Source: Mesotaenium endlicherianum
Taxonomy: Eukaryota
Assembly (NCBI GenBank): GCA_009602735.1
Contig: WELA01001462.1
Coordinates: forward strand, 358,297 to 378,296
Direction: 5' to 3'
DNA: 20,000 nt
Positions 1 through 20,000 of this stretch are shown one piece after another (the stretch's first letter is position 1; each line of letters starts with the position of its first letter). The notes beneath the pieces were generated by a model, which worked only from the letters and a program-made list of their open reading frames with translations, was not told the origin of the DNA and did not search any database. A program made the translations under genes and the position numbers.

Positions 1-1056
1 TCTACTCAGCGAGTAGATGCCAATGCTGCTGCTGCATTTGCTAGACTACCACCCCAGAGTGTAGACTGGGGAGCATTGTTCGTTCAAATGCAGTCGCAAA
101 TGGCGACCATGTCTCAGTCCCAACAGGAGGACAAAAGAATCATAATGTCCCCACTGCGGGACAGAGACCAACTGGGGTCTCAAACCATTAGTGGTGGTGG
201 CAGAGGGCCTAGTAAGCCCAAGCCAAAACCTCCCCAGGACTATGATCCTGAGGGAAACAGAAAATATTACCTGATCAAGTTTCTCGCGGATGTTGAGCAG
301 TGGCTGGAGAACTACCCAGAACTGCAAGATTACGAGAAGGTCAGGCACACCGGTGCGCTACTCAAAGACGATGCCGCAGACTGGTGGCTATATTGGAAAG
401 GAGAGCGTAAGGCTCAGCAACTTGGTGACCCTACGTGGGTAGAGTTTGTCGAGAAGTTGCATGAGAAGTTTGATGTCATCAACCAGCAGGAGAAAGTTAT
501 ATATGCGATGATCTCCCTGACACTGAAGCAGACCACTTCAGTTGTTGAGTTTGCTCAAAAGTTCCAGGAGAACATGATGAAGCAGCCAGACTTGCCAGAA
601 CGGTATAGGATAGCATACTTCAGGTATGGCTTGAAATCCGAGGTCTCTGGTCATTTTGCTGAGAAGAAGTATGAGAAACTGGCTGACTTGATCCAGGATG
701 CTGACGCCTGGGATCAGCAGCAGTTCAATCACAAGCGCCAGAGTAACGCTTTGGTGTCTAAGATTGTCAAAAAGCCCCACGGTTCCTACAATGCAGTTGA
801 AGGAGACCAGGCTGAGGATAATCAGGGTGATGAATATGAGTATGAGTACAATGCTATTCAGTCTAGAGGTAGAGGTGGTCCCTCTCGAGGTGGCTATGGA
901 AGGGGTGGTGGTAGGACTAAGCCAAGACCAGCCTCAGCAAAATCGATTTGTTTCCATTGCCAGCAGCCAGGTCACTTCTGAGAGCAGTGTCCAGTCAAGC
1001 ACCTCCCAAAGGTCGAGAGAAAAGACCAGCCTTTAAAAGACAGCAACAGTCAGTAA
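1..1056 (+). pseudogene. gag: gag (capsid plus CCHC zinc knuckle), one premature stop
   Basis: Frame is open from base 1. Retrotransposon capsid-like motifs LLKDDAADWW, PTWVEFVEKLHEKF, LKQTTSVVEFAQKF, YFRYGLKSEV; RGG-rich linker. CX2CX4HX4C reads CFHCQQPGHF*EQC with TGA at 979-981; next stop TAA at 1054-1056. Confidence 0.92.
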
Positions 1057-4000
1057 TCCAATCTACTGACTATGAGGATGCTAGAGATAGTGAGTCGTCA
1101 CTAGCTGCCCTCGTAGCAGGTAATATGGGTCCTGCTGAACTGGAGTCACTATGCATGCCTCACAACCAGATAAAGGAGACCATCAGCAATATAGACATCC
1201 AGAGAGTGCACACTCTGGATGCTCTTGTTCCACCTGATGTCCAACATTTCTTTGCTAAGTCAGGAGAACAATGCGAAAGTCAGGAAAAGACAGTCCCCCC
1301 CCCCCCTATCCTACTGCATTTGTTGACGGAGGGGCGTCACTTACTTTTATCCATAAGGACTTAGTTAAGCGGCTAAGGCTGCCTACTGTCACCCAAGGGA
1401 ATAGAAAAATATTCCTTAAAGATGCCTCAAGTATCCCGAGAGGAGTTATAACCAAGCCTATTGAGGTCCAGTTAGGTTCTGGCAATGCAGTTCTAACAGA
1501 ATCGCTTACATTTGAGGTACTCAACACTGGCTTTTATGATCTCGTGCTAGGCAGGTCCTGGCATAATAGACATCAAGCTGAAGTGTGTTGGAGCAGAGGT
1601 ACAGTTAAAGTGAGAGGAGCCAGTGATGGGCAGACTGACTTGGCACCCACCAATGCTCTTCCTCTTGTCCTGTGTGGATGGCAACTGAAGGAAAAGAAGA
1701 GGCTTCCAAAAGACAGAATGTTGTTTCTGCTGCTAAGAGTGATACCTCCTCAACCTGAAGTAGTGGTGGAGAAAAAGGTAAGCCCTCCGAAGCACCCTAT
1801 TGCTGCAAACATTGTTGCTCAGTACACGGATGTATTTAATATGCCTCCAGGATTACCCCCTAAGAGAAAATTAGATCATAGGATTGATGTATTACCTGGG
1901 AGTCAACCACCCTGGCAACGCACCTATGGCTTGTCTTATCTGGAGAGCGAGGAGTTGAAAACACAGATTGCAGAGCTTGAGGAAAATGGTAATATTTCTC
2001 CCAGTAAATCACCTTACGGCGCACCCATCCTATTTGTTAAGAAAAAGGACGGCAGTATGCGGACGTGTGTGGATTACAGAGCCCTGAACAGAATTACAGT
2101 AAAAAACAAGTATGCTTTACCCAGAATCGAGGACTTGCTTGATACCCTGTCTGGTGCTAAGGTGTTCAGTAAGATTGATCTCAAGAGTGGTTATCATCAA
2201 ATCAGAATTGCTGAGGAGGATGAACACAAGACTGCCTTCCGCACACGTTATGGACACTATGAGTTCAACGTGATGCCATTTGGACTGACTAATGCTCCTG
2301 CGACCTTCATGGGTGCTATGAATGACATCTTCAGACCTTACTTGGATAAGTTTGTGCAAGTTTTCCTGGATGATATTTTAATTTTCTCTAAAGATGAAGC
2401 TCAGCACACTGAACACTCAAAGAGAATCATGGACACTCTGAGAAAAAATCACTTATATGCTAAAATGAGCAAGTGTGATTTCTTTAACGAAAGTATTGAA
2501 TTCTTAGGCCACGTTGTCAGTAAAGAAGGCATCAGTGTGGATCCTAAGAAAGTCCAGACCATAAGGGACCGGCCAGTACCACAATTTGTCTCTGAAGTTA
2601 GATCCTTCCTCGGGTTGGCTAACTACTATAGGAGATTTATTGAGAATTATTCTACAAAGGCAAGTAAACTGACTGACCTTACTAAGAAAGACATAGGGTA
2701 TGTGTGGGGGGAAGAGCAGCAGGCTGCCTTCCAGAGCCTTAAAGATGCTTTTTGTTCTGCCCCGATGCTAGCCGTGTATGACCCCAGCAAACCGGTGCAG
2801 GTGGTCACTGATGCCTCTGACTTTGCCATGGGTGCTATTTTTTTGCAGCCTGCTGACAAAACCACAAAGGATGGTAAGGTACGGCAGGAGTGGCATCCTG
2901 TGTTGTATGGGTCTATGAAATATAATCCAGCGGAGATTAATTACTCAGTGCATGATAAAGAGCTGCTAGCTATCATTCATGTGCTCAAACAGTGGAGAGC
3001 ATACTTACATGGTAAAGCTTTTAAGGTGATTACAGATCATCTAGCTCTGACTCAGTTTCAGAAGAAGTCCAAGCTGTCGAGGAGGGAGAACCGCTGGAGC
3101 CAGATGCTGGAGCAGTTTCAAGTCCAGATCGACTACAAACCAGGGAAGTTAAATCCTGCTGATGCACTTTCTAGAAAGCCTGACTTGCAAGAAAGGAACT
3201 TTAGTCAGCATGGTGTAGATAAAGTCCTTTGTGCACTCACTTCACTGAAGGTGAAAAAGTCCTTCCTTGAACAACTTAGAAAAGCCTACCTTTCTGACCC
3301 AACATTTGAGCCCAGCCCCACTACTGGTATGTGTCGTGCTACTGCACTCGGGTATGAGCTTAAGTGAGGGGTCTGGGTGACTAAAACCACTTCAGGCAGG
3401 CTGAAGCTAGTCATTCCTAATAACGTGGAAATAAAATCCCTTTTATTGAGTCAAGCACATGTTACTCTCTAATATAATCTCAGACAGGGACTCAAAATTT
3501 GCCTCTTAGATCTGGAGGGCTTTAATGGGGTTAATGGGAGTCAAATAGCTGCTCAGCACAGCAAACCACCCTCAGACTGATGGGCAGACTGAAAGAACTA
3601 ACCGACTTCTGCAAAAGGTACTGAGAGCTTATATTAACCATAAACAAGATAATTGGGATGACCTGCTACCCCAAATCCAATTTGCGGTCAACAATGCGGT
3701 CCTCGCGTCAACGGGCAAGACTCCTTTTCAACTAAGCCTGGGTAGAGTCCTCAAGTCTCCTTTAGATGTCCTAGGAGAGTCTTTACCTCACCCTACAGGG
3801 ATTGACAATCTGGTCTCCCTCCACCTAACTAAGGAGTTTGCTGACACCCTGTCAGAAGTCCAGCAGAACCTGCACAGAGCCCAAGAATACCAACAAAAGT
3901 ACGCTAATCAGCACCGTCGAGAACTGACCTTTTCTAAGGGCGATTTGGTCAAACTGCATTCTCAGCACCTGTACCTCCCTGGTGTGGTCAAGAAAAAGCT

Positions 4001-4394
4001 TGGCCCTGTCTGGATCGGTCCATATTCGGTGGTGCGTCGTGTCGGAAAGAATGCTTACAAACTGAACATGTCAGCCAAATACAAGGGTCATCCGGTCTTT
4101 AATGTCTCCTTCCTGGAACCATACATCAAAAGTGATACACTGTTCACAGGTCGGTTACCTGTCCAACCGAGACCGGTCCCAGCTGTCCGGGACGGCGACC
4201 CTGAGGAATATGAGGTTGAGGACATTTTAGACGCGCGTTCGGTCCGTCGATCGTCTAAATATGTCATGAAGTACCTCATTTGATGGAAGGGTTACGATGC
4301 CTCTGGGGACACTTGGGAATTTAAAGACCATTTGACTAATGCCAAAGGAGCGTTGAAACGGTTCCACCTTCGGGCGGCTGGAGCACCTCTCTAA
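1032..4394 (+). pseudogene. pol: pol polyprotein (protease, RT, RNase H, integrase, chromodomain), disrupted
   Basis: [10 protein letters not shown]...[130 protein letters not shown]. Several in-frame stops, a frame change at the C12 run (1295-1306) and an internal deletion near 3467. Confidence 0.95.
4203..4370 (+). other. Integrase C-terminal chromodomain
   Basis: EEYEVEDILDAR...KYLI*WKGYDASGDTWEFKDHLTNA; aromatic cage residues Y/W/Y present; TGA at 4281-4283 interrupts it. Confidence 0.93.
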
Positions 4395-4788
4395 CAGTCA
4401 TTTCAGTTGACACGGGAAGGTGACAGGAGGTCCTGTCTCCATTTAAGTTGGAGGGGAAAATATATGACATTTAATGTGCGAGAGCGAGAAAGGGACAGTT
4501 ATGTGAACCCTAAGTGTCAGCATAGTGACAGAGGGGACAGCCTGGCCCACATAAAGCACCTTTAGCTGAAGGAAAAAGGGCCTCACACAGCCATACATCA
4601 CTTAACACACCTGAAAACACATTCATACGTTTATGTCTAGCGCACCGCAACTACGTCAACTCCTAGCAATCACCCTGTAAGGTAAACAGGAACGAATATA
4701 CTATATTAATACGAACTTACTCCCTTCTTGCAACTTCTAGGACAAAGGTCGATATCCTACTAAGTTGTGCCCTGGTTACATGTGCAGA

Positions 4789-6459
4789 ATGGCTCCCACC
4801 ACACAAAAAGAGGACAGAAAGCGCAAGGCAGAAGAAGCCAGGAGGACAATGGAGTAATACCAGAAGGAGCTGGCGGCGACGTCCCTCACCAGGATAGAAC
4901 AAGGAAGGGTCTGCAAACAACAAGAGGCGGCAGAAGAATCACAGAGGAAGAAGGATCAGGAAGCGGAAAACCTCAGGATAGCTGAGGAGGAGAGACAAAA
5001 GAAACAACAAGAAGAAGCGGCAGCGGCAGAGGAGGAGAAAAGGAAAAAGGCTGAAGCGGACAGGCAGATGAGCTTGGCCACTTACAGGTATACTGTGGTG
5101 GGTGGCCAAAACTTTGATAACCTGAAGGAAGCATTGCTGGCAGCCCAGGAGATCAACAAGCTGGAACAGACAACTCTACAGAGGGAAGGAATTGCAGCAC
5201 TGGATAGGTACATTGAGACACACACTGGTGTGGTCCTCTACGAGGATTATGCCAAGATGGTGGGCTATACAGCAGAGCAGGCCCGGTACCTTGCCGATGA
5301 TTCAGAGAACAAGCCAGTCCCAATACCGGGAATAGTGGGAGATTAGAGACTCATCATGGTGAGCATGCGGCCCGATAGCTTTAAGGATACGGTATTCTAC
5401 CTCACACTATTGCCAGCTTACAATGAAGTTGAGAGACGGAGCTGGGAATACTTGGCCAGGGAAGCAGGACAGCAGATGTTCTCTCCCCACTGGTTCCCAT
5501 GTAAACTGAGAAAGGTTGAGCATGGACCTCAGTACTACCAGCAGCCAACAGACTGGAGGTGGATGACCGTCACAAACAAAAAGCAGGAGTGTGACTGAGC
5601 CCAACCAGACAATGTCCACTATGGCCTAGACGGCTACCTCATCCTACCACCTCACATTGCCCCTTGGGACCCCAGGCTGAATGGCTGCCTGAGTAATATG
5701 AATGCAAAGACCAAAGAGCACAGGAGGAGGAGGAGAGACTACTTCTCTAACGGAAAGCATGCCTTCGTCAAATGGGCGAAGAATGCAGGCCAGATAGATA
5801 TCAGCAGGCTGAAGGCCAAGCAACCTCCAGCGCGCCCTAAGAAAGGGTTATCAGTAGACTACTCCATGTCTACCAGGGAGCAGGACGACTTGGTTGACGA
5901 GACACCTAATTTCTCAGAGGAGGAGGATGAGGAGGATGAGGAAGAAGAACAAGGCAGAGGAGAAGCATCAGGAGCTGGTACTCAGGAGACCCAGGGGCAG
6001 GCAGGGGCACTTCCTAAGGAACCAAGATCAGGTATATGGAACGTGATCCCGGTCATGGAGGCAACTGGACCCCGCACTCGCTCCCCCAGCCCACTTGCCC
6101 AAGCAAGGGAAGAAGCTGATCTGACTGTACTTGGCAGCAGACACCGGTAGAAATCCCCAGAGGACAGGGGTGCCAGAAGAGGAACACGCGGGGTGGCCAG
6201 AGGTATGCCGGCCTCACCCTTCGCTCAGGGACATGTACCTCTTGCCAATGTATTTCAGCATCCTACTGGAATGTCTGTCTATGTGGGGATCAACACCCAA
6301 GTGGGTGAAGAGCAGGCTACCATCCTTCGTTCACCTCGAGGTCCAACTTTAGAACAAACGGGGTTCTTTAGAAGGCCAGCTGCCAGACCTAGAGGGCTGT
6401 CCAGATCTAGGTCCATATCTCAGTCTCCTGATCCTGAAGACCCAGGAACAACCCCTTAG
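4789..6459 (+). pseudogene. Additional ORF (~556 codons) between pol and 3' LTR, unknown function
   Basis: ATG 4789 and listed ORFs 5068, 5356, 5698 and 6193 are all in one frame, broken only by stops at 4855, 5344, 5596 and 6148. E/K/Q/R coiled-coil-like N-terminus, aromatic-rich middle, RRRRR basic patch, acidic tract, SR-rich tail. Confidence 0.8.
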
Positions 6460-6556
6460 GTGACAGGCTGAAGAGGCAGTTAGTGGGGGAGGCTAGTCAG
6501 GTTCAGTTCTCTTATTTAAAACTTCTGCAATTTAATGTTGTTGAGGCGACAACAAG

Positions 6557-6571
6557 TTAAGTTGGAGGGAT
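6557..6571 (+). promoter_or_regulatory. Polypurine tract of the chromovirus
   Basis: TTAAGTTGGAGGGAT immediately before TGTAGTGAA. Confidence 0.8.
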
Positions 6572-7147
6572 TGTAGTGAATCAGTATGTTAGTAGATATA
6601 ATATTCATTTATATATAATAATTAATAATCAGTCTGCTGGACTTCATACTTAATATCAGTTTAATGACTCCATCGGAAGCAGCAGGCTGAAGTCAACTTA
6701 AGTCAGCTTGCTGACACATTCTTTGACAGCCAACTGACTTCCGTACTCGGTAGCAGCGAACTGCCTCGATATGCATCTAAGTGTGATATGCTAGATGAAT
6801 GGCCAGATGACATCCCTATGATGGATGGCGATTCGGGATGATGGGAGATGGCGGTGGATTTGGTGAACCGAGGTCCCTACCAACGTGGTTAACTCCCGGG
6901 TAGGCGGTGCCATCGCACTGGCCGTTGAACAGTAAACTCATTCCATGTACATATGCTAGGCATTGCTCTCGAGTTCGGCATTCGGAAACGAGGCCAACTC
7001 TCTTGTACAGCTTACCGAGAGATCTGAATCCAAGGCGAGAAGCCGTTGATACGCACTGTCTTCTAAACCTTGCTTATGTATAAGTTTACTGATTGCATTA
7101 TTGATGCTAGTTTACTCGCATTTGACTTACGAGTATCGTTCACTGCT
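6572..7147 (+). repeat. 3' LTR of the chromovirus (LTR1)
   Basis: Starts TGTAGTGAATCA after the PPT. Imperfect inverted end TTCACTGCT at 7139-7147, after which unrelated DNMT coding sequence begins. Shares its start and a core motif with the LTR at 7682. Confidence 0.7.
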
Positions 7148-7150
7148 AGT

Positions 7151-7681
7151 GTGTTTCCTTTGCCGTTTAACAAGTTAACAGAAAATACCATAAAAGATTG
7201 CTTGCTGGTATAAAGATCTTCATTAATTGTTAATCGCCTATTTGGTAAGTCGGTTCATTTTATTTTTGCTGGATTCTCTTACCGGCCATTCTCCCAAGCC
7301 GGAAGGAGAAAAATGATTCAATGATCATCAAACGCAACACTGGGGAAAAATGGTGAAAATCATCCAGTCGCTGCAAGAGCGCCAGCGTTAGTTTCCACCT
7401 GCGTTTGTGATTGAGAATGTACACTTGGAATTGGACTACAAGGAGATGAAGCCAGGGGCTTCATTGCTGATTTTTTACTCCACCTTAGGGCATCATGCCT
7501 TGCTGAACGACGCGAGGCATGGGGGATTATCTCAACGAGCCAGGATGCTTAGACAAAATTGTATATCCATTGAGCATTTGAAGGCTATAGATTCGATCTT
7601 GCGACGACCGCCCAACGCACAATCTGTGGGAGAAGTACTGGGGGTAATTACTAAATCAGTGGCAAGGAGGGATACCTACCT
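7151..7681 (+). pseudogene. DNMT3-like C5 cytosine methyltransferase, copy 2, N-part (motifs IV, VI, VIII)
   Basis: SVHFIFAGFSYRPFSQAG (degenerate GxPCQxFSxAG, 7250-7303), frameshift in A-run ~7310, then WGKMVKIIQSLQ...PPAFVIENV (motif VI ENV) and LLNDARHGGLSQRARMLRQN (motif VIII RxR). Colinear with the DNMT at 16225-17158. Confidence 0.85.
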
Positions 7682-8944
7682 TGTAATGAATCAATTCATT
7701 ATGTATTCAATTAATTGCATATATAAATATAACACTAAATAAGTATTATATCTATATACTCACAAGTGCGAGTTCATCTAAATGAATGTATGTCGATGTA
7801 ATGCGAGTTTACTTACTTACTTTGTCAAAAAGGTCAGCAGGATGACTTTTGTTCCATAGTGTAGTTTGCTGACTTTGTTGAAAAGGTCAGCAGGATGACT
7901 TCTGTATCATAGTGTAGTTTGCTGAGATTTATATATCAGTTATATATAGGATATAATATCAGTAGGTTGACGTATAGTAAGCTCGCTTGATATTAGTCAA
8001 TATACTTAGCTTCAGTACGCTGAGGATAGACATGTTCATTTAGATTGTTATTTGTAGATTGGCACATGTGACCGAAGTATACTGAAAGTCGGGAGGTCGA
8101 CTGAGATTTGGTAAACCGATGTCCTACCATTGTGGTTAACTCCTGGGTAGGCGGAGCCGTCGTCAGTCAACTGAACAGTTAGGACTTCAGTCAACCACCA
8201 ATTAATATGGTCGTTATACCTAGATCCGTGGGTCCCAACTTAACGGGTTTCCCACGAAACGGCGCACCTTGCGCCGTGGTCAACCAGGTGGTCACTAGGT
8301 ACATAGCAGGCTGGGATCTCGTGGTCCCTCATTCTGGACAGTAGGCTTTACAGTCGGATTTCTACTTGCAAATCATGTGTGCACTTTTGGGTTTGTTCTA
8401 ATGACCAGCCTTCACGGAAATTAACATGGTTGCTTTGTCTGCGCTCCAAATGGGACGAACTAGGACTTTTCGGAAAGGTCTTGTCAAGATGCATCCGTTG
8501 CCGTTAAGTTTGCTCAATTTGAAGTAGTATTGGCAGAGTTATGCCCTCTGACATTTCGGGGTCACACAGCGGACAGATTCCATGGTTTTGCACCTAAGTC
8601 AGTGGGATGTGTTTTAGCTACATTATGGTCATCTGAATGAGAGCCCCTTTGCTATTCAGTCCCCTGATGTTGTGCATGTGCTATACATGCTTGCATGCCT
8701 GGTAGGCAAGAGGCCATGAGTTTCTAAAGGAGAAGCTCTACTCCTCAAGCTCGCCTCTTTCTTGTGCCTTGTATTCGCGTGCAACTATGGCACACTACGA
8801 TGAGTGAATCAAGGGTTATAGATGAGTAAACGGAATTCGTTATGAGGGTGAAGATCGCTCCCTGATTTCACATGCTTCCACCTATCTCTGATCTTTTATA
8901 TTTAAATGAAATATATTAATCTTGAATAAGCAAGATTCATTTCG
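7682..8944 (+). mobile_element. Solo LTR (~1263 bp) related to LTR1, with 5-bp TSD
   Basis: Starts TGTAATGAATC and ends GATTCATTTCG (imperfect inverse of the start). Flanked by TACCT (7677-7681) and TACCC (8945-8949). Excision rejoins the DNMT frame. Confidence 0.88.
7821..7926. repeat. Tandem duplication, 2 x 53 bp, inside the solo LTR
   Basis: TTTGT..AAAAGGTCAGCAGGATGACTT...CATAGTGTAGTTTGCTGA at 7821-7873 and 7874-7926. Confidence 0.9.
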
Positions 8945-9247
8945 TACCCTCAGTATAGCATCAACAAGCCAGGGAAACCGAGAGAGGTTCTGCCTACCTT
9001 CACGGCCTACCTTGAGTCACGAGCTTTCTCTAAGGGAGGACCCGAGATGATTAAAGATTCCACCATCGGCTCGTTCTGGCGAGAACCATTTGCTATGAAG
9101 AAGGGAAGCTGTTTGAAGCTCCCAGATCAGGTGGTTCGGAACATCATCAACAAGGTTGGGAGGCCAGAGGCATCAAAGATCTTTGGCAACATGATTGGGC
9201 AACATACTATGACCTGGTTGCTGGAGACTATTATGACATGGCAATAA
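8945..9247 (+). pseudogene. DNMT3-like methyltransferase, copy 2, C-part (target recognition region, motifs IX-X)
   Basis: YPQYSINKPGKPREVLPTFTAYLESRAFSKGGPEMIKDSTIGSFWREP...KIFGNMI aligns with HPSFCQVNIPGHPRAAFSTLVSCPRSYTFCQFKPGMIFDSHTH*YVEP...LLGRVMD of copy 1. Confidence 0.82.
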
Positions 9248-11188
9248 TTGACTTTTGCCAACAAGCCTATGCCAAAGCCACCAACGGTATCAATTGGAAT
9301 ATATGCGGTGCCTACCTCAGATCAGAGATCTAACCAAAATGTGCAACAACGCCGGGAGGCAACTCCAATACGCAGAAATGCTGCTGGAGAACCCAGAGGC
9401 AACCATACCTCTCGCAAGGAAGCCGGGATGGTTGAATTGGCATGATGCCATGAGCTGCAAGACCGCATAGACAATAGAATGGCTAAGCTAACCACACCTT
9501 TGGCAAGAGAAGACACGCCCATGGCAGACAAAGATCCAAACGACGAGACTCCGCCACCAGCCGAAAAAGCAGCTGACAGGTCTATATCACCCACGCCATC
9601 TGGGCCATGGGTGGACGACACGCATGTCACATCGCCTTGGCTAAGAGAGGCGGCGTCCAGGCAAATAGAGGTGCCATCACCCGAAAGGGAGGAGACACCT
9701 GAACGGCAACAGACGCCAAGACTGGAGGTGACTTCTTTGCGTGAGGAAAAAGAAAATTCTAGTTCTGACACCAACGTCAGACCACGAGCAACCGAAAATG
9801 GACACTATTGGGAGGCAAGTTCAAGCAGTTGGGAAGCTAATCAGCGCTGTCTATCATCCTCACCAGATCGGAAATGGTCAAATGAGACTTCAAGCTAGGG
9901 AACCCTAGAGGACGATGATCCAAGAGAGGAAGATGATCGGACCCACCTTGCTGAGCGACAGTGCAATGTTGGTGAATGGGCTGAGGCAAGCAACCAGAAT
10001 TCTGTAGACTCTGGAGGGTCTGGAAAAACCATATGCTTGAAAGTGATTATTGAAAGTCACAAGGAGCTGAGCAAGAAATTGAGTAAAATGCTCTACGCAT
10101 CTGAGTCAACCAAGGAGGAGCATCCTATGGCTACAGTTTGTCTAACAGCTGGGAAAATCACCAGGCAAATTATGAATTAACTTTTGGAGGCTGATGCTGA
10201 TCGGCGCAAGGAAGGGAAGGTAGCGCAAGTAGCGCACTTCTTTGCAAAATGCAATTATCAACATGGCCAAGCTCAACACAGAAGACGACAAAGAACCGTT
10301 GCCACCTGGAGTGGAGGAGCCAGTTGAAGTCGAGGCAGGAACGCCTAATGCACCAGACTTCAACTTGCCTGAGCTCGCAGATGGAGGGGACGTAGGGGAC
10401 CAGATCCCACAATTTTCTACTTCAGAGCTGGACGTACAGGACCTGCAAGAGCTCAGAATTGATGATTGGGTATGCGACCAGTTAACACTGGAGGGGCCCA
10501 ACCCAACGGACCTATATGATGACTTGAGGTCGCCCACTGCCAGCATCACAGCACTGGAACATTCCACTCAGCGAGGGCGGCAATAGCCACCAGAGGTGAG
10601 TGCCTGTGTCGCTTAGGCGGAAGCAGTTGAAGGAAAGCCACAAGGTCGCGCAAGCAGGCCAAGGAAAGTGGCTCGCAAGGGAAACGCACCACTCAAACAA
10701 ATGTTGATGCGTTATTTCAAATACCAAGGGAAACCTTGCAGGGAAGGAGTTCCGCGAGAAATCACGACTGCCCCACCAAAACTAATTATGGAGATCCTGC
10801 AGAAAGAGAGCAATGCACGTCTAATGCGCAGAGCTGCTGCATTAGGTCTGAACATTTCCATGGTAACGCTTCCACCACTGTAATGCGGGGAAGAGCAGAG
10901 TCTGTCTCTAGGGTGCCCACAGCTACTGAGCAAGAACTCACTGACCTGAGAAGAACGGTGCAATGCTTGGTTGAGGAGAATACCGTGCGTAACAGGTTGG
11001 CAGATTTGCAGGATCGTTGGTTTGTGTCACGTGGCTGGACAGTCACACCACCACCAAGAGAAAATCTAGGAGTGACATTGGAATGCATAGTTTCACTGGA
11101 ACGTCAGTGGGGTGGGACTATCGACCCGAGGACCGCTGCCCATGACCCAGGTGAATTGGCCAGTGGCCAACGCACGTCCACCATTTGA
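9248..11188 (+). pseudogene. Decayed coding sequence of unknown function downstream of DNMT copy 2
   Basis: Chain of plus-strand ORF pieces (9255, 9479, 10242, 10668, 10736) rich in P/E/D/T/S with some helical-looking segments. No RT, RH or INT motif recognised. Confidence 0.45.
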
Positions 11189-11466: not shown

Positions 11467-11469
11467 CCA

Positions 11470-12340
11470 TGTAACGAGCCCAAGCAGATTAGTTGTGAGT
11501 TGTGAGGTGAAGGTGTTACAACACGGACGAGGACGAGGTGATTAACTTATGTGATGGCCGAGTTCGAGAGCACAATGCACGCACTTAATAAGCTTAAGGT
11601 GTGGGTGTGGTACGTGCTACCTTCTAACAGAGAGAAGGGTAAACAAGAGCACTCAATCCGCAAGCATTTCATTAAGACATGCACCAAGAAGTAGAATCAA
11701 CTTAAACATGAAAATGGACTTACAAAAGCTAACACCGAGATTGTGTGAGCGTGGAACCTAAGTAGTGTACCCTCACGAATCTATGCCCAATGCGAACCTA
11801 CCAAAATCAAGCGGAAAGGAATCCTACGACTTAACGCGTCATCGCGTTAAATCGACTAAATAACACCAAAACATATATGAACCGACCTGTGCTCAAGAGT
11901 ACGACGAGCGTGCGGACGAACAACGACCAACCCCCCACACCCCTCCAGTACTCTCCCTAACCCCTAGCAATCGCGTGGGCATATCCGGCGGGTTTGCCTA
12001 TAGTACGTGACGGCCCAGTCACCCATGCCTAGGGATCCTACTTGGTACCAGTGCTAACCCAACAAGCGGGCAAACTTGTGGGTCAACCTTCACACGTGTG
12101 GGCGGCACACCACGCGTGAAGGGAAAGGGAGTGCGCGGGATCCGGGCAGAGCCTCATAGCTGCTCAATAGCAGAACCTCGTGAGCGGATCAAAGGTCCAA
12201 GTATTCACCCTAGTTGTGAGTGGGCTAAGCCGTCCTCTCCTACCACCCTAACCCGACTAACCACTAGATCTTGCCATCACCCTCCACCCTCAAATTCTAC
12301 CCCTAGACACCAAAAGGATGCGACAGGCACGGGCATGACA
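11470..12340. mobile_element. LTR-like unit (~871 bp) between LTR copies A and B
   Basis: TG...CA termini with imperfect inverted ends TGTAACGAGCCC / GGGCATGACA; non-coding; no matching TSD found. Confidence 0.5.
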
Positions 12341-12342
12341 GC

Positions 12343-12593
12343 TGCCGCAACAAAGATTATTGGCAGACGCTAGGCATTGATACTGCATAGGTGGGAGAGA
12401 GAGCTCGAACATGCGAGACGGATTGGTACTACTAACCTAGGGAATGTGGGTAAAAACCCCCCCTAACGAGGGGAAAAGCCCACAGCGTATTAGCTGCAAA
12501 TGCGAAAAGAATAGTAAAGGTCTGAACTAAGCACACCTGGGCAATTGAAAATCTACTGGGCACCTATTGCCTAAGCAAAAATAGCTATGAAAA
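12343..12593 (-). repeat. 251-bp LTR copy B, the 3' LTR of the DNMT-PHD element
   Basis: On the minus strand it follows the end of pol and a PPT, and ends ...GTTGCGGCA. Confidence 0.85.
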
Positions 12594-12604
12594 TCCCACC
12601 CCCA
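12594..12604 (-). promoter_or_regulatory. Polypurine tract of the DNMT-PHD element
   Basis: Minus-strand GGGGGTGGGA directly abutting LTR B. Confidence 0.75.
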
Positions 12605-13039: not shown

Positions 13040-13190
13040 CTACCGGGGTGGGCGGCACGAGGGGCAAAACCAACCACCATTGGGATTCTAGGCAGAGGAG
13101 GAGACAAACAGGCTAAATGCGAACCAGCATTGCAACGATCGCACAGCAGCATCGAAGCGGGGCGACGAATTGACCCACACCCGTTGCAGG
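13040..13190 (-). pseudogene. PHD finger at the integrase C-terminus
   Basis: CNGCGSIRRPASMLLCDRCNAGSHLACLSPPLPRIP, then after a 1-nt frameshift (~13082) NGGWFCPSCR; gives the C4HC3 pattern; stop at 13040-13042. Confidence 0.92.
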
Positions 13191-13199
13191 GTTGGTTAG

Positions 13200-14335
13200 C
13201 CGAGACAGTGGCTTGCAATGGGTCAACCTCATGAAGGATATTAGGCAAGTGACAAGGTGCGCAATTCTTCATATTCTTGCAAATGGTGCGATCATCAGAA
13301 CCCTCAAGTGTAAGGACCCCATTAGGACTAACGGTGCGTGCTCGTAAGATGACTGGGCCGGCACGAACGTTAAGAGTATGGCGCATTTTACGTTGCAAAT
13401 AGACATAACCCCGACCTCAAACTTGACCGTACGAGGCTTGTATACCCCACTCCGTAAATGCGCGTAGCGAAACGTGTCCCGGTGCTGAGCAGTGAGCAAA
13501 TTACCCATAGCAATCGACATGTGCTTAAGGAACGAGGTAGCGCGTTCATTGAGGTGGGCGAGCAAGACATTGGGATCGTCAAGCTGAATAGGCAGAGTAA
13601 TACGACGACAAATGGCGGAAGGAAGGGGAGGTTCACGACCATACAGGAGGAAATACGGAGAATATGCGCGCAAGGACGCCTGGAAACTGAAGTTATAGCC
13701 CATGGCCAGCCACGGGATGTGCATGTCCCAGTCAGACACATCGCAAGTGAGGGCATACTTGCGCAGACTGCGCTCGACGGTTTTGCACTATGCGTTCCGC
13801 AAGCCCATCGACCTGGGGGTGGTCATGTGAGGTTATATGATGATCAATGGAAGATGTATCAAGCAATTTGGCCAGATCACCCTAGAACTCTGACTCTTGA
13901 TCAGTGAGGACCTCAGCACATGCTCCATACCGACACAAGATACGATCAGTAAATGTGCGAGCGATGTAAGCACTGGACTTGTCAGGGATACTGACCAGTT
14001 CGATCCATTTAGTAAGATGCTCAATCATGCCAAGAACGTAGCGCATGCCACACTTAAAGAGAGATAAGGGTCCAGCCAGATCCAACGACCATTAGTAAAA
14101 GAGCCCTCGCAGAGGGAGGGAGTTGAGGATAGAATGAAGTGCATTGAAAGTGTTCTTGACGCGGTCACAAGAAGTGCAGGAACGGACAAAATCGTTGACT
14201 AGGGTGACTAAGCCATCCCACCAAAACTCGGTTTGCAGGAGGGAGCTAGTACGCTTAACCCCAAAGTGCCCTGACTCCTCATGGATCTTACGAATGAGGG
14301 AGATGCGTTGAAGGGGAGGAGGAACAACTCAAGTA
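13200..14335 (-). pseudogene. Integrase (HHCC plus DDE core)
   Basis: IHEESGHFG...CTSC, WSLDLAGP, EVLTDQESEF, HPQVDGLAER, WDMHIPWLAMGY, SPYFLLYGREP; stops and frameshifts. Confidence 0.93.
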
Positions 14336-14475
14336 TGGTGAGGAAAGATGCGCAGTAAAGCCCCTTCATGCCAGTGATAGTGCGCACAGCGATGCAGGAT
14401 GCGGTCCCGCTCACGTGGAGAGATGGGTGAAGACCAGGCTCGGGTGCGTAAATACTCTAATACGCCAAGATCAGA

Positions 14476-15132
14476 TCAAACATCAGAAGCCTCACGCAGT
14501 GATGCAGCTGGACTCACGGCGCATGCACCCACAGGAGTAGGGAGAAGACCCAAATAATACGCGGCATGCCAGGCTGGTAGGATGTGTTCTTGCTGACTAG
14601 ACGCAAAGCGAGCCCCAATGGTGTTAACATCAGAAGGATCAGGGTTTCCACTAAGCCCATCCGCATCTTGGTTACTTAACCCGACTTTATGCTCAATAGT
14701 CGAGTCGTATTCCTGAAGTATGAGAGCCCAACGTGCGTGTTTACCCGTAAGTTTCTGGTTGGCCATTAACCACTTTAAAGGTTGGTGAGCAGTGATTAGA
14801 GTGAAGTGGGTACTGTAGAGGTAAGGACAAACATGTATGACAGCCCATACTGCAGCTGAACACTCCCCTTCATACGAACTGTAATTCCGTTCGGCACTGT
14901 TGTTATTATGGCTAGCATAAGCAACAACGTATTCATGCCCCTCTTCATCCTCCTGAGCAAGCACGGCTCCCAATCCCAGATGACTCCAATCGGTGTAAAG
15001 GGAGAAAGGCTTATTGTAGTTGGGTCTGCGGAGGATAGGAGCAGAGGAGAGAAGACCCTTCAGTTTGTCAAAGTCTGCCTGGCGTTCAGTATTCCATTCC
15101 CAGGGTACATTCTTTTTCAAAAAATTGTTCAA
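14476..15132 (-). pseudogene. RT connection and RNase H
   Basis: LYTDWSHLGLGAVLAQ, VVAYAS, ERNYSSYEGECSAAVWAV, ITAHQPLKWL, ARWALILQEY, NQDADGLS. Confidence 0.93.
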
Positions 15133-16055
15133 CGGACCGCGATTGAGCTAGAATCAGAGCAAAAGCGACGGTAATATCCAGTGATGCCCATGAAGGCCCG
15201 TAACTTAGATACGTCTATAGGAACTGGCAAACGTTGAATAGCATTGACTTTAACTTGTTGTGATGTTAGCCCCCCAGGTACAATGTGATGTCCAAGGTAT
15301 GGAACGGAAAGGGTAGCAACCTTTCATTTTCCCGGGTGACACTTGAGACCCGCGGCTTTCAAACTGTGCAACACATGTTCCACATGTACCAAGTGTTCCT
15401 CTACAGTACGGCTAAAAATGAGCACATCATCGATGTAACAACGAGCAAGAGGTAACCCACTCAGCATACGGTCCATGATACGCTGGAATCGGGCAGGGGC
15501 GTTCTTTAAGCCAAACGGCATAACCTTCCACTGGTACAGACGACAATTTCCCCAAAATGCAGTCTTATGTTTATCCTTGGGATCAATAAGGATTTGGTTA
15601 AACCCCTGACGTAGATCAAATACACTGAAGACAGTAGCGTCCTCAAGGACATTAAACATATTCTCAGGTACAGGCATGGGGTAGCGATCAAGCTTAGTAA
15701 CAGCATTGAGTCCCCGATAATCCCCACACATGCGCTTCTCAGTGTAATTCCCCAATGCGTCCTTCTTAGCAGGCATAACTGTGGGTGCCGCGAAATCAGA
15801 CATTGACTCCTCTATCATGCCAGCCTCTAAAAGCTCAGTAACCTTTTCACGCACAATGTCCTGTTCTACTCTAGCGTGTCAATAGTCCCGTAGAAACACC
15901 GATTCGGAGGTGGTGAGGTCAATGGTGAACTGTGACATGTTACAAATCCCTAAGTCCTTAACTAATCGTGCAAAGTATGATTCATTACGATCAAGCATCT
16001 GAGTGAATTGCACAACTTCCTTTTCAGTTAATTGTGTGCCCAGGTCCCACCCATC
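15133..16055 (-). pseudogene. Reverse transcriptase
   Basis: KRMCGDYRGLN, YPMP, FSVFDLRQGFNQI, KTAFW, MPFGLKNAPARFQ, CYIDDVLIFS. Confidence 0.96.
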
Positions 16056-16224
16056 CTTAGGTTTCTGTGCGGACGAAATCGATGAGGGGTCTGCGTGCTA
16101 TGCTGGAATTAAAAATTCTGACGGAGCCCCCCCTCCTGCAGCCAAAAACAGGTAGGCTGGAATATGTCGGAAAAGATCAGGGAGGCGGGCGTTGAGGATG
16201 GGTAAGACAGAGAAAGACCTTGTG

Positions 16225-17158
16225 AGCACATGAACATCCATGACACGGCCTAGCAATTGGCACCGCTGGGAGGGGGATAAGGACGGAGACGCAGTAGCAT
16301 GGGGAATAAATCCGAGAATGAGCTCGCGTTCGGACGCGGAAGGCTCGACATATTAGTGTGTGTGGGAATCAAATATCATACCAGGCTTAAATTGGCAAAA
16401 TGTGTAAGATCTAGGACAGCTGACAAGGGTAGAAAAGGCGGCGCGTGGGTGACCAGGGATGTTGACTTGACAGAAAGAGGGGTGATCGAGGCGAAGGACC
16501 TCCATTGGGCAACGGTGGGGAGCTAAGTCTGAAGAAACAGTGAGACGGGGAAGATGTGCATGCATGTGGTGGACCAGAGGTGTGAGGGTGATGGGTGAGA
16601 CAAAGTTTTGCCAGAACACTCGAGATCGATGAGCGTAGGATCCCACGGCGGCGGCATCAATAGGGACCCAGGCCCCAGGATGGATGTGATGGTGAGGAAG
16701 TCAGCACGAACGTGGGCCCGGGGATCGTCTGCGGAGTTAACATCTTCAAAGAGGTACGTTGGAGGAGAGAGCTGAGAGGTTTGGAGAAGCCCTAAGACAC
16801 GCACAAGCTCAAAAAATAACTGAGAGCGAGGGTCCGAGAGCCCCTTCCCAGTACCCGCCCGAGAATGACCCTGACACTCCCATCCACCTACGACCAGGTG
16901 AACGGGCCCAATGGCGTGCAAATGTTCCAGATGGATCAGGCGAACGTCAAAAGGCAAGGCTGAATAAGCCGTAGAGTATGCAGATGGGGGAAATAAGGTT
17001 GGGAAAGCTAGGGTGAGGAGAGCAAGGTGGTGTTGGCTTGCAAGTCGGGCAAGCGGGTCAGCGTCACAATAATAGTAGTGCGCAATACGCTGCCCACTGA
17101 GCAACAAACCCGCGACGGTAGAAGAGACCCCCGCAAATAAATCGAGCACCGTGATGCC
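16225..17158 (-). pseudogene. DNMT3-like C5 cytosine methyltransferase domain within Pol (copy 1)
   Basis: Motif I VLDLFAG; IV VVGGWECQGHSRAG; GLSDPRSQLFFE; VI YLFEDV; VIII IDAAAVGSYAHRSRVFWQN; IX-X ERELILGF...RCQLLGRVMD. One frameshift (~16668) and one stop (16353). Confidence 0.95.
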
Positions 17159-17524: not shown

Positions 17525-17835
17525 AGCCTCAAAGTCAACGCGATATGTGGCAATGCCTTGCCACAAGTCAATGGTGAGACCGACGAGGAAATTAAACTCC
17601 TGGCCGAGTAGGACATCATAGAATGTAGACTTGGTGACCATACATTGAGCATAGAGGGTGACAGCGGCGGGGGTATGGGCATTGAGTGTGGTAGGTATAC
17701 GACAACGTGATTGGTGTGGAAACAGGATTAGGACAGGGCTCAAGATCGTCAGCGGTGATGCGGAGGTGCTGACACATGACTGCTCCAAGAAGGATTGGCT
17801 GGGCCCCAATATCGAGAATGACTATACGGGGTGCG
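17525..17835 (-). pseudogene. Retropepsin-like aspartic protease
   Basis: VILDIGAQPILLG (degenerate DTGA) and, after a frameshift, FYDVLLGQEF. Confidence 0.8.
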
Positions 17836-19158
17836 AGATTGTCCATGCGAAAATACGCATGCTGGTTATCCACCATCATATTGCGGGGCAAAGCGCGCTG
17901 CCGCTCAAGAGGGGTAAGGAAGGACGGGTGGCGGAGCTGACCTGGAAGGAGACAAAACCTGTGAAGGGGCGAGAAAAAAGGAGAGAGCAGGGGGGAACGA
18001 CCCACCTGGAGGACGCGGTACGGAAGATGGCGAAGGAGAGGGCGTTGCGAGGTGAGCTAGCAGCGGAGAGTCTGGAGGATGGCTGGTAGAGGTCGAGGCA
18101 GGCACAGACGCGGCGAGGTAGGCCGGGGACTTGACGGCTTAGGGGCGATTGGCAGATGAAGCAGCGGGCGCCCACAGAGGAGAAACGTAGGTAGCTGGGA
18201 CGGGACGGTCGGTTGGGACGCGCGGCGGCGGAGGGTGCGGACAGCGACGGGGGAGCTTGAGCGTAATCGCCTCTTGAGCCTGTCCAAGAGCCGTAGAGGA
18301 CACAGTAAACAGAGATGGTGGAAGCAAGGCACCCCCCCGCAACTGGGATGGTGGCGGCGGAATGAACGGAGTTGGTTGAGGAATAAAATGCGACGGTGCT
18401 AGAGGAGGTACCGTGCCCACTGGAGTAGGAGGTAATTAATCAAGAGCATTTGAATCGCATGCGTCTACCAACGCTGGCAAAGAGGCAATGGACGTGTTCT
18501 CGACCTGACAATTGTAAGTAACTTTGCCAATACAAAAAGTGACAGTGCACGGCAGGGACGTGGAGTCGGACGGCAACGGACGACGGGACGGGGACGAAGG
18601 AGGAATCGGAACTCCCTGAATGTCGAAGCTGACAGAAAGGACTGACTGGCCAGCGGACAAACTGGTTGGAGCAGGAGTTGTCGGCTCAAGAGGCTCCACG
18701 GCTGCTCGCGCAAACAGGGCAGCTAGCGCAAATGGGAGAGGATTGCTGGTAGGAGGCGGGGTAGGCGGACGTGGCGGGCTGGACGGCTGCGGCAAATCGG
18801 CTACCACTTGCGCATATGAGGGAGGGAGCAGTAGATCTCTCTCCACTGCTGCGGCTGCGGCGCGCAGGTGGTCACACACCTGCTAGACTTGCAACTGCGC
18901 TGCGGGCACATCCTCCGGGAGGATGACCATAGTACCTGCAGCCCCCCCCTTAGCTCTGACATCCCACACCGGTACAGGCAAACGCGAGTGAGACGATCCT
19001 AACGTATCATCGGGCTCAAACAAGTCAAAGGACCGCGGCAGCTGAGCAGACTGCTTTGTATGCCGGCCATGGTCAGGATCGACGGGAGGTGGAGCGGATG
19101 GCTCATGCGCCGCTGTGACGTTTCTGCTTTTTCGAGAGGATCTTTCCTCGGTATTCAA
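17836..19158 (-). pseudogene. Pro/Ser-rich N-terminal part of the polyprotein (gag position)
   Basis: ORFs 18883-19158, 18436-18879 and 18139-18420 are in one frame separated by single stops. A CFIC...CAC cysteine cluster lies near 18100-18165. No capsid motif recognised. Confidence 0.5.
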
Positions 19159-19281
19159 GGAATATTTAATTCAAGTGGAAGAAAAATTCGTATACTTGTG
19201 GAAATTGACGAATACTTGAAAGAGCGAAAGTGAAAACTAACGTAGAATGTGTGCTTGTGAGAGTTGCACTCACAATGACTC

Positions 19282-19301
19282 TGCAGGTATTTATACCTGC
19301 A
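19282..19301 (-). promoter_or_regulatory. Candidate TATA box inside a palindrome
   Basis: TGCAGGTAT-TT-ATACCTGCA; minus strand reads TATAAATA at 19295-19288. Confidence 0.4.
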
Positions 19302-19558
19302 CAACATGAGGCACTGGAGTGCTTCGAGTCACCACCTAGGGCACTGGTTCATGTTCAACGAAAACGGTCGAAGGGACGTGTCCCATTCGGCCGAATGCAC
19401 AAAACGCGCAGTTGGCCGTTTGGAGACTTTTCGACGGTTTCCGAAAAACCGTTTCGCGCCAAACGGGCGTTTTCGCGTTCTCGCGACTTTCCGAAAAAGT
19501 CGCGATTGATCGCGGAGTCGCGTACAGATGCTTTCGTCATGAACCGGTAGTTTAAGAA

Positions 19559-19629
19559 GCTACTTTGGCCAATCGGTTAGGTGTGAACGTTTCAAACGAA
19601 AGTCGCGGGTTCGAATCCGCTCGGATGCA
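19559..19629 (+). other. tRNA-derived sequence (pseudo-tRNA or SINE-like head) with Pol III A and B boxes
   Basis: A box TGGCCAATCGG (19566-19576), B box GGTTCGAATCC (19608-19618), T-arm GCGG...CCGC. Acceptor and anticodon stems do not pair well. Confidence 0.6.
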
Positions 19630-20000
19630 AAGCGAATTTGCATATTTTGTTTCGTTTGACTTTACGACTGTTTGTTCGTATTAATGATACAACAGTTTCT
19701 TTGTATTACGACTAGTCGTAATCCGAAATCTGTGATTGTCCATTATTCGTAATAATGACAATCAAAATAACTTAATCAAACAATGATTAATGAAATTTTC
19801 ATCTCATAATTATTCAAAGTAAGTTTTTGAATAATTATGTCGTACTTTTGCGAAGTAGTCGAATTACGTTACGACGCTTTTTGCAATAGTATCTCGGTCG
19901 TTTCGCCAATCGACCGGGAATTAATCGGCACACGTGTGTGGCGAATAATTCAATGTGATGCAATCATTTATGAAATAACTTATGATAAATAGTATAACGT

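Follow-up and report, generated by a model that had tools for sequence, protein, structure and literature searches.

Retrotransposons with domains that write or read chromatin marks are already known in several forms, among them Gypsy elements with a DNMT3-like DNA methyltransferase (DNMT), Gypsy elements with a PHD finger, and EpiLTRs, in which writer and reader occur in one long terminal repeat (LTR) retrotransposon. In the accessible text on KnitGypsy-Dnmt3 and other streptophyte Gypsy-DNMT3 elements (de Mendoza et al. 2018, PMC5890265), an intronless, unrearranged DNMT3-like domain lies within the Gypsy pol and the repeats follow the order A-coding-B-A-B; the role of such domains is treated in the discussion as an open question. 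The text and supplement text name no PHD finger, although Fig. 4c may draw one. DNMT3 in retrotransposons is also mentioned in PMC12344493, with no PHD in the part of its text at hand. PHD-bearing Gypsy elements (PMC9940879, PMC6673714) and PHD-transposon fusions (10.1101/2021.11.30.470311) have been published. The available text on one of them, Gypsy-7a_cRei of Chlamydomonas (PMC9940879), describes an active element whose PHD is proposed to steer insertion; its 86 new insertions favour intergenic DNA, falling 2.6-fold more often between genes, with targeting versus selection left open, and no DNMT is listed. EpiLTRs (bioRxiv 10.64898/2026.05.21.726589) combine, in the accessible part of the preprint, a DNMT sister to DNMT4, an adenine methyltransferase (DAM) with an NPP motif, and a chromodomain as histone reader. 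Here we describe a Ty3/Gypsy element with a DNMT3-like domain and an integrase-fused PHD finger, found in 20,000 nucleotides of Mesotaenium endlicherianum DNA (assembly GCA_009602735.1, contig WELA01001462.1, positions 358,297 to 378,296 of the forward strand), called the window below and numbered from its first letter.

From about 17900 down to 13040, the minus strand of the window carries a colinear pol: protease remnant, DNMT3-like methyltransferase, reverse transcriptase (RT), RNase H, DDE integrase, integrase C-terminal domain, PHD finger and stop codon. The Gypsy order of protease, RT, RNase H and DDE integrase is thus present. At least eight in-frame stops and at least six frameshifts, one of them within the PHD, were counted in the aligned segments, stops in an overlap and in a linker whose frame is uncertain being left out of the count. 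As to identity alone, we have very little doubt that this is a dead Ty3/Gypsy retrotransposon of the Gypsy-DNMT3 family. A preliminary description, made from the sequence without database searches, had placed a DNMT3-like domain and an integrase-fused PHD in one element here, and both were confirmed on the minus strand by Pfam and by family profile. The features of the element, from its 5' to its 3' end, are as follows.

17910..19128, minus strand: probable gag region and 5' part, placed by position; no match to relatives or Pfam
17537..17909, minus strand: aspartic protease remnant, split by a frameshift; family profile matches, tblastn with P0095 and P0002
16221..17158, minus strand: DNMT3-like C5 cytosine methyltransferase, intronless and unrearranged; Pfam DNA_methylase E 8e-7, family profile
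15288..15839, minus strand: reverse transcriptase, with a stop at 15326-15324; Pfam RVT_1 E 4.5e-26
14710..15096, minus strand: RNase H; Pfam RT_RNaseH E 2.4e-34
13620..14316, minus strand: zinc finger and DDE core of the integrase, with D, D and E conserved; interrupted by stops and by a frameshift near 13790
13189..13407, minus strand: integrase C-terminal beta-rich domain (probably SH3-like) and linker to the PHD; conserved in relatives
13040..13188, minus strand: C4HC3 PHD finger, then the pol stop codon; Pfam PHD E 1.6e-6, ligand positions
12595..12603, minus strand: polypurine tract directly ahead of B1; from sequence, with a G-run at the equivalent place in relatives
12343..12594, minus strand: repeat B1 with CA end, followed by a 2-base spacer, 12342-12341
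11469..12340, minus strand: putative repeat A2 with TG start; first bases the same as those of A in the relatives L002 and L020
11216..11468, minus strand: repeat B2, 90% identical to B1; its CA end is the 3' end of the element

Repeats are nested in the window and the copy is damaged, as would be expected if nested insertion or mis-assembly had joined unrelated DNMT and PHD pieces. Such an artefact is refuted: the pieces are colinear with single relatives over the whole of pol, uninterrupted natural open reading frames (ORFs) with both domains exist (P0324, P0341, P0094), and 11 independent metagenome loci carry both on one contig.

All eight ligands of the C4HC3 finger are kept in the window (Cys 13188, 13179, 13143 and 13134, His 13119, Cys 13110, then Cys 13066 and 13057), the last Cys pair in another frame, past a frameshift near 13082; the stop codon follows at 13042-13040. 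The family's aromatic residue before the His is absent, as is an acidic residue before the first Cys. The DNA run containing the stretch holds 1,125 related contigs, 685 of them less than 95% alike, and because some of them differ at the damaged PHD sites, these lesions look private to the window copy. As the preliminary description had noticed, the finger ends the integrase at the place of a chromodomain: it comes after the integrase C-terminal domain, which forms beta strands in the structure model of the relative P0212, just where the neighbouring element at 1-4400 has its chromodomain.

In animal DNMT3, the ADD domain adjoins the catalytic domain and regulates it. An ADD identity was considered for the finger of the window element and ruled out, the finger being a canonical C4HC3 PHD on the integrase, about 1,010 codons downstream of the DNMT, with RT, RNase H and integrase lying in between. 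No ADD entry occurs among the 60 solved-structure matches listed in either PHD search; the nearest solved PHDs among the matches listed are those of ATXR5, UHRF1/2, KAT6, KDM5A PHD1, PHF21A and AIRE. Naturally intact PHDs occur in the family, for example in P0322, P0072 and P0125. The type of finger was scored on 165 parsed family PHDs (six others did not parse). According to the accessible text of PMC3241642, readers of unmethylated H3K4 have no aromatic-cage Trp, a hydrophobic residue before Cys3 and acids before Cys1. The cage Trp occurs in none of the 165, the residue before Cys3 is hydrophobic in 163, Asp follows Cys3 in 155, Trp precedes Cys7 in 154, and an acid lies within five residues before Cys1 in 113. 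By sequence, the family PHD is a predicted reader of the unmethylated-H3K4 class; ADD, too, reads H3 in this state.

The finger could also act as a non-specific tether to nucleosomes, or be bound by a host factor, and exert no choice of site, with the DNMT serving replication by protecting or marking complementary DNA (cDNA) or RNA. In the accessible parts of the sources, PHD fingers are common accessory domains of many unrelated transposons (PMC6673714, PMC8557442, PMC9940879), some PHDs bind non-histone proteins (PMC3241642), and protective roles of the DNMT are listed in the discussion of PMC5890265; about a third of the family PHDs, moreover, have no acidic patch. This explanation sits badly with the H3-binding surface, strongly kept at the three positions around Cys3 and Cys7 counted above, and with the place of the finger, that of the targeting domain in chromovirus integrases. 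We consider it rather improbable.

The family profile of the DNMT ranks DNMT3A/3B first (E 2e-18), with HaeIII at 6e-9 and DRM2 at 3e-8, a lead of nine orders of magnitude, and animal DNMT3A/3B provide the nearest solved catalytic domain. The window domain keeps 53 of the 64 family-conserved positions, including the catalytic Cys, the Glu and RxR. Its motif VI reads EDV, with D where 95% of 49 relatives have N. Its lesions are a stop just upstream (17161-17159), a frameshift near 16670 and a stop at 16355-16353.

Relatives were collected with an RNase H search, which is blind to DNMT and PHD. It gave 135 proteins, 120 of them listed, and two outgroup-like rows were dropped before scoring. Named matches come from Klebsormidium, Calypogeia, Marchantia, Riccia and Closterium, and one is a Coleochaete transcript. 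A PHD is present in 33 of the 36 scoreable relatives among the 120 listed; P0059 has a divergent Cys/His-rich end instead, P0104 may stop short, and P0097 has no PHD. Among 80 metagenome loci, 21 were assigned to the family on their RNase H score or on a PHD match. Of these, the 11 mentioned above have both domains on one contig, another has a PHD in decay, and the others are cut or fragmentary; neither DNMT nor PHD was found in the remaining 59 loci. With the integrase end and PHD as query, a full HMMER search returned 296 representatives at E <=1e-10; the integrase-PHD piece gave no match in a word-index search. Among the best 150 of the 296, a set baited with the PHD, the DNMT lies in the same ORF in 24 of the 26 with enough upstream sequence. 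Pfam often fails to recognise this DNMT, with E 0.36 in P0159 and E 0.24 in P0197. Two Marchantia gene models annotated as hypothetical proteins, Mp_2g26090 and MARPO_0091s0058 (P0087, P0095), are pieces of the family (protease-DNMT-RT-RNase H), and the deep family member P0289 has three CCCH zinc fingers in its gag region.

In the RT-RNase H tree, the window element falls with K. nitens, Coleochaete, Closterium and liverwort sequences into a 37-row clade (support 100/99). The K. nitens RT records of this clade, P0037 and P0047, may not be the copies described in PMC5890265. Gypsy-7a_cRei is likened to the window element by its description in the available text, as a Gypsy element with a PHD finger. 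Unlike KnitGypsy-Dnmt3, the window copy is dead and forms a deep branch of its own, with at most 63% identity over RT-RNase H; this extra branch is most of what the copy itself contributes. Branches of 100/100 and 100/99 separate the clade from the neighbouring chromodomain element, which served as the chromodomain comparison of the tree. Chromoviruses also carry a histone reader at the integrase C-terminus, but the window element has no chromodomain, and because its RT lies outside the group of the chromodomain-bearing neighbour, the likeness of the readers is convergent. A chromovirus with a swapped reader was rejected on the position of the RT. No Chromo match was found in the stretch concerned, and the finger is followed directly by the stop. 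REM1 of Chlamydomonas, also a Gypsy element, is said to carry its PHD on a separate antisense ORF.

Two layouts occur in the family. In layout A, found in the window, the streptophyte records and the deepest rows, the DNMT lies between protease and RT; in layout B, found in one large subclade (SH-aLRT 100), it lies between RNase H and integrase, just ahead of the integrase. Much the same division into two groups appears in the DNMT tree, which fits vertical inheritance. Some layout-B elements (P0106, P0143, P0301) have a G-patch motif between DNMT and integrase. In some lineages (P0001, P0002) gag-protease-DNMT closes as an ORF of its own without RT, so that the DNMT may be produced at another level than the integrase-PHD.

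Both traits were scoreable in 44 of the 91 tree rows; four of the states were assigned manually, after cluster mates or by inspection. Both domains are present in 36 rows, the DNMT alone in two, the PHD alone in none, and six outgroups have neither. The tree requires one change for the DNMT and two for the PHD, and both domains trace to the base of the clade. The pairing is ancestral, with one shared origin; its frequency is therefore no evidence of coupling, and since both traits map to that single origin, only one independent contrast is available. The co-occurrence raised in the preliminary description is thus old and widespread, but it amounts to a single event. Independent occurrence, raised there as a finding that would speak against a link, was seen in one direction: P0028 and P0356, of one subclade, have complete pol ORFs in which the DNMT is kept and the PHD lost, and a related DNMT occurs without a PHD in a DIRS-like ORF (P0003), while PHD-only rows number 0 of 44. 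P0003 has the order DNMT-RT-Dam; its DNMT falls within the layout-A group on a long branch, the placement being unsure, and exchange between Gypsy and DIRS-like elements is possible. The further proposal that the element rebuilds DNMT3-like logic from separate parts keeps a low probability but is not supported, given the one independent contrast and the subclade with DNMT and no PHD, as well as the nature of the finger, a canonical PHD and not an ADD.

The reading that we favour, and regard as somewhat probable, has the two domains acting separately, the PHD as a tether of integration to nucleosomes that lack H3K4 methylation and the DNMT as a marker of the cDNA of the element itself. By general Ty3 biology, the protease would free the DNMT and the integrase-PHD as separate particle proteins. 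The PHD would bind the H3 tail and steer insertion off H3K4me3-marked promoters, and the DNMT would methylate the new cDNA, so that the element would enter the genome pre-marked, as proposed in the available text of PMC5890265. The substrates of the DDE integrase would be the CA with which B ends and the TG with which A starts.

Several results weigh against this reading. The K. nitens DNMT was inactive in yeast, a result that its authors call inconclusive. The CpG content of the window element shows no sign of long self-methylation: the observed/expected ratio is 0.69-0.89, as against 0.36-0.43 in the neighbouring chromovirus. CpG and CWG ratios, however, vary with the host contig and differ in opposite directions in the two same-contig pairs (window, L060), so that they carry no information on self-methylation. 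An acid exactly three residues before Cys1 is present in only 84 of the 165 family PHDs, so that discrimination of K4 may be weak in some of them. Although no PHD-bearing member was shown without a DNMT, 20 of the 33 PHD-bearing ORFs start at or after the RT, leaving upstream DNA unseen for many; P0293, a candidate for such a member, had no match in viral contigs. Finally, the placement of the DNMT in layout B would suit physical coupling.

With such coupling, DNMT and integrase-PHD would stay joined, and the PHD would bring the DNMT to H3K4-unmethylated chromatin, so that the insertion site is methylated much as by DNMT3 with its ADD. It is mainly layout B that keeps this alternative alive, the DNMT there standing directly ahead of the integrase-PHD, often with a second methyltransferase fold after it. 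Both domains are also kept in 36 of the 38 scoreable in-clade rows across a deep clade, and by its type the PHD appears to recognise the H3 state that is read by ADD. These points are offset by the single origin with its one independent contrast, by the loss of the PHD with retention of the DNMT in P0028 and P0356, by the DIRS-like ORF with a related DNMT and no PHD, by the separation of the domains by about 1,010 codons and three enzymes in the layout of the window, and by the canonical nature of the finger. We judge coupling unlikely, with the same chance as the non-selective tether. The near-constant PHD of H3K4me0 type, together with natural variants (PHD lost, DNMT moved, second methyltransferase gained), makes comparisons possible on intact natural elements.

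The 3' end of the window element shows the order B-A-B, and the complete A-coding-B-A-B pattern, the same as that of KnitGypsy-Dnmt3, is present in the relatives L002 and L020. The 5' repeat A1 was not found in the window, in which A2 occurs once. Of 252 columns, 25 differ between B1 and B2; 21 of the differences are transitions, 17 of those in CG or CHG context, a pattern that methylation by the host would be expected to leave. DDE integrases process CA and TG ends that have two spare bases, which makes the CA-nn-TG junction between B and A a probable substrate of the integrase. A junction of this kind occurs in eight of the 15 loci having 700 bases downstream of the PHD; as the pattern was drawn from these same sequences, with variants allowed, the count is a description and not an independent test. 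Clear target-site duplications were found neither in L002 nor in L020.

Among the best 150 of the 296 representatives, the PHD is followed in 52 by a further domain, some 200 residues long. Its motifs are DPW-x-G and SPW/SPP-like, degenerate in many members. It matches phrog_799, a phage DNA methyltransferase family, at any strength in six of nine scanned proteins and at E <0.001 in three (best E 8e-7), and Atlas clusters of phage and bacterial proteins are similar to it (score 0.95). A second Atlas search, bearing on the hosts of layout B, gave a lead of 0.76 only. A structure model including this tail has a mean pLDDT of 86.5. Foldseek with the whole 502-residue model gave mixed matches; VIA-align, the clearer test, aligned the model with METTL5 (Z 13.2, root-mean-square deviation 3.2, 153 residues) and with M.TaqI (Z 12.6, deviation 3.4, 160 residues). 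Judged on the model, the tail is an N6-adenine-methyltransferase fold, and a fold alone shows no activity. It is present in P0212, P0205, P0125, P0301 and other layout-B relatives, which thereby have three chromatin tools in one ORF, and also in the deepest row, P0121. Layout-B relatives have a small beta domain between PHD and tail, with a weak Tudor match in P0159 (E 0.08).

No tail follows the PHD in the window or in PHD-complete ORFs of streptophyte type. DAM-LTRs are absent from streptophytes according to the accessible part of the EpiLTR preprint (10.64898/2026.05.21.726589), which fits this absence. The window element differs from EpiLTRs in having a PHD and a DNMT3-like domain and no adenine methyltransferase or chromodomain, and the tail motifs of its relatives are of SPW/SPP type. 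The pairing of PHD and DNMT3, the tail and the CA-nn-TG junction were not found described in the published sources searched; subscription papers, theses, Repbase, figures and bioRxiv supplements may hold such a description. The tail after the PHD in many relatives and the CA-nn-TG junction of the B-A-B repeats are thus apparently undescribed.

A wider and speculative reading, to which we give a low probability, is that the ancestor of this large and old clade had three chromatin tools on a single polyprotein: a DNMT3-like cytosine writer, a PHD of H3K4me0 type on the integrase and a phage-like N6-adenine-methyltransferase tail. The integrase-PHD would bring the writers to the insertion site, the CA-nn-TG junction of the split direct repeats would be cut, joining DIRS-like replication to a DDE integrase, and streptophyte lineages such as that of the window copy would have lost the tail. 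An element of this kind would set its own epigenetic state on arrival.

RNA reads say nothing on expression of the window copy, as they come from related copies: three runs labelled with the same species yielded 9, 117 and 97 reads, all below 99% identity, and 82-100% of them run into unlike sequence.

Other repeats surround the element. A Ty3 element of very high copy number occupies positions 1-7260 (plus strand). The end of its integrase, at 4284-4367, is chromodomain-like (Pfam Chromo E 3e-4, under the curated cut-off), and an extra reading frame lies at about 4783-6460, ahead of a probable 3' LTR; its summed contig depth is in the hundreds of thousands, as against about 65 for single contigs. 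At 19129-20000, where the 5' end of the studied element is expected, a very high-copy, AT-richer repeat begins with a jump in depth near 19129. A further, much diverged remnant of a DNMT of the type in the studied element lies on the plus strand at 7290-7720 and 8921-9253, its two parts separated by some 1.2 kb of high-copy insert. It has no RT nearby, further frames follow downstream at 9446-11188, and it belongs to a low-copy repeat adjoining the 3' end of the studied element.

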